Assembly (NCBI RefSeq): GCF_000026545.1 | Contig: NC_011601.1 | DNA from: Escherichia coli O127:H6 str. E2348/69 | GTDB taxonomy: Bacteria; Pseudomonadota; Gammaproteobacteria; Enterobacterales; Enterobacteriaceae | Length of the DNA stretch: 64,000 nucleotides | Direction: 5' to 3' (one strand) | Part shown: piece by piece, positions 3,197 through 3,500 of the stretch | Numbering within the stretch: position 1 is the first letter of the stretch | How the letters are laid out: each line of letters opens with the position of its first letter | The notes under the pieces: model-generated | Databases searched by the model: none | Told to the model about the DNA's origin: nothing | What the model saw: only the letters and a program-made list of their open reading frames with translations | Position numbers and translations under genes: made by a program

Positions 3197-3290
3197 AATC
3201 AATAGCTCCTGAAATCAGCGAGAATCTAAGACCTTCCACAATGGACAGGTCAGGTAGCCAGAACACCCATCAGGCGCGTCCTCATCGGCT
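3197..3290 (-). promoter_or_regulatory. ibpA 5' UTR (ROSE-like RNA thermometer region)
   Basis: About 95 nt lie between the predicted sigma32 transcription start and the ibpA ATG; E. coli ibpA is known to carry an RNA thermometer in its leader. Confidence 0.45.
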
Positions 3291-3298
3291 ACGATGTA

Positions 3299-3328
3299 AA
3301 AATGGGTCTGGAAATGAACTTTTCAAGC
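3299..3328 (-). promoter_or_regulatory. sigma32 heat-shock promoter of ibpAB
   Basis: Minus strand reads CTTGAAA-(13 nt)-GACCCATTT, matching the sigma32 consensus CTTGAAA-N13-15-CCCCATNT. Confidence 0.6.
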
Positions 3329-3500
3329 CTTATCAGCGGACTTTTTTTGCAGTTTATGGTCTATTGCATAGACTGAGGGGGCAGCACGAAACGTTAAAGT
3401 GCGATAGCCGCCACAGTGCGACGTAATGATGATGTTATTTTCAGCAAGGGATCGCTATAACTCATCAGGCCAACACCCACGATCAACAGATGAATTTATT

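Follow-up and report, generated by a model that had tools for sequence, protein, structure and literature searches.

The region upstream of ibpA in Escherichia coli O127:H6 str. E2348/69 is almost certainly the native control region of the E. coli small-heat-shock operon ibpAB, which acts in layers. The ibpA-ibpB pair lies on the minus strand at 2200-3500 of the 64,000-nucleotide stretch of DNA that we analyzed (hereafter the window), with 100% identity to enteropathogenic E. coli (EPEC) E2348/69, and the 1301-nt stretch carrying it is present as a single chromosomal copy in 5419 of 5426 complete E. coli genomes. Reading the minus strand from 3500 to 2200, there is a tandem pair of ORFs of 137 and 142 amino acids. 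The former is ibpA (2783..3196; ATG at 3196-3194, stop at 2785-2783), whose product matches the NCBIfam equivalog NF008013 at 295.5 bits (cutoff, 212); the latter, beginning with the ATG at 2671, gives an equivalog-level match to IbpB at 288.4 bits (cutoff, 207). RefSeq features at the locus are yidR, the divergent yidQ, a 73-nt element labeled "ROSE", ibpA, ibpB, and yidE. The ibpA promoter and leader are already known and well studied, and ROSE is already annotated by RefSeq in E2348/69.

The original prediction placed a sigma32-like motif on the minus strand, and both of its boxes are found where it had put them, with one mismatch to the consensus. The -35 element, CTTGAAA, occupies 3321..3327 and was assigned by its location, its conservation, and its match to the consensus, which is CTTGAA for the sigma32 -35 element (PMC10216364). 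The -10 element, ACCCATTT, occupies 3300..3307 and matches seven of the eight positions of the consensus CCCCATNT. The prediction had also described the arrangement as CTTGAAA followed by 13 nt and then GACCCATTT; the latter is indeed located at 3308->3300 on the minus strand, but the gap between CTTGAAA and GACCCATTT is 12 nt, the 13-nt gap being that between CTTGAAA and ACCCATTT. The standard reading of the ibpA promoter is CTTGAA-N14-ACCCATTT, or in full CTTGAA-AAGTTCATTTCCAG-ACCCATTT. A distance of about 100 nt between the promoter and the ibpA start had been proposed, and the end of the -10 box lies 104 nt before the ATG.

Several lines of evidence support the assignment of this site as a canonical sigma32 promoter; that it depends on sigma32 comes from published work with K-12, and in Salmonella ibpAB was bound in a chromatin immunoprecipitation of RpoH (PMC11548764). 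The boxes and the spacing between them have the geometry of dnaK P1, in which CTTGAA at -35 to -30 is separated by a 14-nt spacer from CCCCATTT at -15 to -8 (PMC10216364). The full 28-nt consensus, CTTGAAA-N13-CCCCATNT, has one match in the window, with one mismatch. We considered whether the motif might instead be a chance match, with ibpA transcribed from a sigma70 promoter or by read-through, given that the motif is judged here by its match to a consensus and that the start site is deduced from it. This is very improbable. The looser pattern CTTGAAA-N12-15-CCCAT occurs once in the 64-kb window, against 0.04 occurrences expected from shuffled sequence; a scan for consensus-like sites found no sigma70-like promoter between 2000 and 4000 on either strand; and read-through into ibpA is impossible because the upstream gene, yidQ, is divergent. 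The boxes and their spacing are also kept across 65 species while the 13 bases between them vary freely, a pattern to which we return below.

Because the geometry of the ibpA boxes is identical to that of dnaK P1, we infer that transcription starts at about G3292 (minus strand), a position that should be accurate to 1-3 nt by this geometric analogy and that would yield a 5' untranslated region (UTR) of approximately 96 nt. Promoters that depend on sigma32 are expected to initiate 7-8 nt downstream of the -10 box. The UTR length is in accord with the value of roughly 95 nt that had been anticipated, and it agrees with the 102-nt length of the published ibpA thermometer construct, as given in PMC3981793. 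A literature search for a mapped ibpA start recovered none, with the matches naming ibpA only in passing.

Upstream of the promoter, a tract of seven A residues at 3343..3349 (minus strand; about -57 to -51 of the ibpA promoter) is preceded by AAA(C/G)TGC, and four of its A positions are invariant in 65 leaders from the Enterobacteriaceae. Its position and the invariant A residues suggest that it is an UP-like element of the ibpA promoter. The tract has eight A residues in K-12. Farther upstream in the ibpA-yidQ intergenic region, approximately 35 nt from the -35 box, we observed a perfect palindrome, GTCTAT-GCA-ATAGAC, at 3359-3373. The palindrome is kept in Escherichia and in most Citrobacter and is degenerate in Klebsiella and Enterobacter; it may serve a regulator or form part of the yidQ promoter.

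Downstream of the start site, the leader had been predicted to occupy the position of an RNA thermometer, and a search with Rfam covariance models bore this out. ROSE_2 (RF01832) matches 3190..3262 on the minus strand at 96.6 bits (E = 3.4e-22), well past the gathering score of 65, with all of the model covered (positions 1-73 of 73). The match is to the same 73 nt as the RefSeq "ROSE" annotation, and it lies on the same strand as ibpA and ends 6 nt inside the coding sequence. The ibpA leader is thus a full member of ROSE_2. A sub-threshold match to ROSE_3 (24.6 bits) falls over the same 3' hairpin of the leader.

Three hairpins are predicted in the leader, in keeping with the two to four, stable 5' ones first, that typify ROSE elements. 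Hairpin I (3254..3292, minus strand) is long, stable, and 5'-terminal, and appears in the minimum free energy and centroid folds at every temperature tried. Hairpin II (3230..3251) lies within the ROSE_2 model and is called from the folds and from covariation. Hairpin III (3206..3222), the putative thermosensing hairpin, has the form CUC-G-CUG, an AUUU loop, and CAGGAG, and is supported by the ROSE_2 structure line, the centroid fold, and the pairing probabilities. Its anti-Shine-Dalgarno strand UCGCU (3221-3217) pairs imperfectly with the Shine-Dalgarno (SD) sequence AGGAG (3210-3206), leaving G3219 bulged; a U(U/C)GCU motif opposite the SD is described as a hallmark of ROSE elements in PMC3669281.

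To examine the conservation of the promoter and leader, we scanned a single genome from each species for a 20-nt pattern taken from hairpin III. This yielded 66 loci, 65 of which precede an IbpA start; these 65 belong to Escherichia, Salmonella, Citrobacter, Klebsiella, Raoultella, Enterobacter, Pluralibacter, Mangrovibacter, Atlantibacter, and other genera. A Prevotella locus was rejected as a chance match to the 20-mer, there being no ibpA at that site. Another retrieved locus, at 9663-9877 of CACSKA010000004.1 (labeled Chryseobacterium sp. 18061), carries an enterobacterial-type ibpA promoter, leader, and IbpA N-terminus, and this assembly is probably mislabeled or contaminated. The alignment comprised 65 sequences, those of the window and K-12 included.

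The promoter shows a clear footprint in this alignment. Six of the seven positions of the -35 element never vary, and the remaining one is A in 61 of 65 sequences; within the -10 octamer, the CAT core and the final T are invariant, with the other positions kept in 48-63 of 65. The distance from the -35 to the -10 element is identical in all 65 sequences, and the bases between them vary almost freely. Fixed boxes at a fixed spacing around a free spacer are the footprint that a real promoter should leave. The original prediction held that both elements, promoter and thermometer, appear conserved, and the fixed boxes and spacing in the 65 leaders, together with the above-threshold ROSE_2 match, uphold it.

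The RNA structure is similarly supported. Across the alignment, 90.9% of cells fall in standard pairs of the three-hairpin structure, compared with 33-50% in controls with the 3' partners slid by 1-3 columns. Changes on both sides of a pair number 155 cells, compared with 58 +/- 7 in shuffled alignments and 17-40 in the slid controls, and the covariation score was exceeded in none of 500 shuffles. Twelve of the 15 pairs of hairpin I have changes on both sides across species; hairpin II is 95.7% paired across the 65 species, with four pairs changed on both sides. This signal is that of hairpins I and II: because the 20-nt retrieval pattern lies in hairpin III, that hairpin is invariant in the alignment by construction; it is supported independently by the Rfam model and by the fold of the paralogous ibpB leader. 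Purifying and compensatory selection is clearly acting on the promoter and on hairpins I and II across the Enterobacteriaceae.

We then asked how the predicted structure responds to temperature. All three leader hairpins are predicted throughout the range 20-50 C. Folding of the leader at 30 and 42 C (3290->3197, minus strand) had been proposed as a check, with failure to occlude the SD counting against a thermometer. In this fold the SD is occluded by pairing with the upstream CUCGCUG, with probabilities of 0.97-0.99 at 30 C and 0.91-0.94 at 42 C, such that every SD base is paired with a probability of at least 0.91. The energy of hairpin III rises from about -5.6 kcal/mol at 30 C to -3.8 kcal/mol at 42 C, the SD remaining at least 91% paired in the bare UTR, and melting of hairpin III between these temperatures is not predicted by nearest-neighbor folding. 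For this reason, the case for temperature sensing rests on published experiments with the K-12 allele, for which melting has been reported, along with a 4-fold induction between 25 and 42 C. Alternative folds of nearly equal energy appear once 30 nt of coding sequence are added, and the folding z-score of the whole UTR is modest (-1.97).

These features are consistent with the following model. RNA polymerase carrying sigma32 (RpoH) would read CTTGAA-N14-ACCCATTT and initiate at approximately G3292, the amount of transcript tracking the level of sigma32, which is raised by heat shock or protein unfolding. The resulting UTR of about 96 nt would fold into the stable hairpins I and II and the weak hairpin III. 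At low temperature UCGCU, with its bulged G, would lie on the SD AGGAG and block binding of the 30S subunit; as the temperature rises, the short and imperfect helix of hairpin III would open and translation would begin. The 5' hairpins may stabilize the fold or the transcript, a role that is discussed in PMC3669281. Free IbpA bound to the structured UTR would repress its own translation, and this repression would be lifted as aggregates titrate IbpA away.

According to the literature, both sigma32 and an RNA thermometer control E. coli ibpA; the original prediction had invoked the same two layers, sigma32 and a ROSE-like thermometer, and the promoter and ROSE_2 match found here are in line with it. 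The literature further describes three stem-loops, the third of which masks the SD, and self-repression by IbpA through the UTR; IbpA is also described as repressing the translation of ibpB until it is titrated by aggregates. This autoregulation through the UTR is the only substantive addition to the account given in the original prediction, which had not mentioned this layer. The evidence for sigma32 dependence, melting, and autoregulation by IbpA is published work on the K-12 allele, from which the leader studied here differs by one base.

Autoregulation also raises the question of what the leader principally senses. It might be mainly an operator for IbpA and an mRNA stability element, responding to aggregation and not directly to temperature, in which case the heat response would be mostly indirect, through sigma32 induction and the titration of IbpA by aggregates. 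We view this as a possible but doubtful reading. According to papers from the Taguchi laboratory, IbpA bound to the ibpA 5' UTR is a translational repressor, the repression is relieved by mutating any of the three stem-loops, and a reporter is induced at 37 C by aggregation-prone proteins. Our own folding, in which hairpin III is predicted to stay closed from 30 to 42 C, is also in its favor. Furthermore, because hairpins I and II covary strongly without touching the SD, they must do something else. Against it, the pairing of UCGCU with the SD around a bulged G is the defining motif of the ROSE thermosensor, and the Taguchi-laboratory papers themselves treat the two mechanisms as coupled and not exclusive.

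We compared the 320 nt upstream of ibpA with those of K-12 BW25113, O157, and FCI51. There are two differences: a G in place of C at 3226 (minus strand), where all three of the other strains have C, and an A-tract at 3349-3343 that is shorter by one A. Within the leader, the C-to-G change is the sole difference from K-12. In the Rfam model a pair between C3226 and G3200 sits at the base of hairpin III, such that the sequence here presents a G-G mismatch. The allele is common: the exact 73-nt sequence is present in 1103 of 5417 complete E. coli genomes (approximately 20%), and the other 4314 differ by at least one base.

In our view the change at 3226 is a neutral polymorphism; no effect is predicted, and a small chance of tuning remains. 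A shift of the thermometer to a set-point other than that of K-12 seems unlikely. Such a shift would be in keeping with the loss of the basal C-G pair of the Rfam consensus, with the frequency of the exact allele when K-12, O157, and FCI51 carry C, and with a slight difference between the predicted ensembles: at 30 C in the 102-nt construct, the probability that the SD is paired to the anti-SD is 0.72 for G and 0.55 for C. However, the energy differences are small, the two ensembles lying tenths of a kcal/mol apart, and their sign depends on the flanking sequence that is folded, with the G and C alleles swapping rank once 30 nt of coding sequence are added. In addition, the 2-bp basal helix is the least conserved helix of the structure (68.5% paired across species), position 3226 is itself variable across species (A in 32, C in 21, T in 10, and G in 2), and the core SD/anti-SD helix is unchanged. 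Slimmer still is the prospect that G3226 retunes the thermometer, or autoregulation by IbpA, by exchanging the 2-bp basal helix of K-12 for a register-shifted U-A/U-G/A-U/G-U helix. If it were true, such retuning would constitute a lineage-specific heat-shock set-point in about a fifth of E. coli, including EPEC E2348/69.

Within the operon, the spacer between ibpA and ibpB (2672-2782) contains a second ROSE-like hairpin at 2680-2697 (minus strand), of the form CUC-G-CUUC / GAAGGAG, which is predicted to mask the ibpB SD. The two leader elements are paralogous and lie 500 nt apart; that of ibpB is inside the operon and that of ibpA at its 5' end. They share the CUC-G-CU.../...GGAG hairpin, with its UCGCU motif and bulged G, and show compensatory differences in the upper stem. 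The ibpB element is likewise described in the literature as repressed by IbpA. Its score against ROSE_2 is 15.2 bits, well under the threshold. An ibpB thermometer has reportedly been described by Gaubig et al. (2011, Microbiology 157:66). A sigma54 promoter is also said to lie upstream of ibpB; inspection of the ibpA-ibpB spacer by eye gave no convincing match to TGGCAC-N5-TTGC.

Two other structures were noted on the minus strand of the operon. A G+C-rich stem-loop, GGCCGCC-UGGCG-CGGCC, lies at 2757-2775, approximately 8 nt past the ibpA stop and without a U-run; possible roles are in processing, in stability, or as a partial terminator between ibpA and ibpB. At 2207-2227 is the intrinsic terminator of the operon, of the form GCCCCGCCA-UUC-UGGUGGGGC followed by U7. 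Sub-threshold Rfam matches between 2190 and 2340 (anti-hemB, Hrs1, PrrF, and similar) were set aside as generic resemblance to a terminator, because all of them sit on the ibpB terminator hairpin and its U-run.

The control of ibpA is a textbook case of a layered heat-shock response, combining sigma32, an RNA thermometer, and autoregulation by the chaperone, and its discovery value here is small. We see the value of the exercise as one of calibration: a sigma32 promoter and the position of a thermometer could be recognized from the bare nucleotides.

The closest known system is the thermometer of the E. coli K-12 ibpA 5' UTR, reportedly described by Waldminghaus et al. (2009, RNA Biol 6:455). 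It shares with the leader in the window the same three hairpins, the UCGCU/AGGAG pairing, the bulged G, and the position upstream of ibpA, and differs in the C-to-G change at 3226 and in the window's A-tract, which is one A shorter. More distant relatives are the alpha-proteobacterial ROSE1 of Bradyrhizobium hspA and the ROSE-like element of Pseudomonas ibpA. In these, as here, U(U/C)GCU imperfectly masks the SD, and 5' hairpins that stabilize the 3'-proximal hairpin are a shared feature. The number of hairpins differs, being three in the ibpA leader, four in ROSE1, and two in Pseudomonas ibpA, and relative to these elements the leader is alignable in sequence only within the Enterobacteriaceae. 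For the promoter, the natural comparison is with dnaK P1, the promoter in the cryo-EM structure of the sigma32 open complex (RPo) (PMC10216364). The two have the same geometry (CTTGAA, 14 nt, xCCCATTT) and are identical at 13 of 14 box positions, the ibpA -10 octamer starting with A in place of C. The ibpA promoter further differs from dnaK P1 in that the leader it drives is a regulatory element in its own right.
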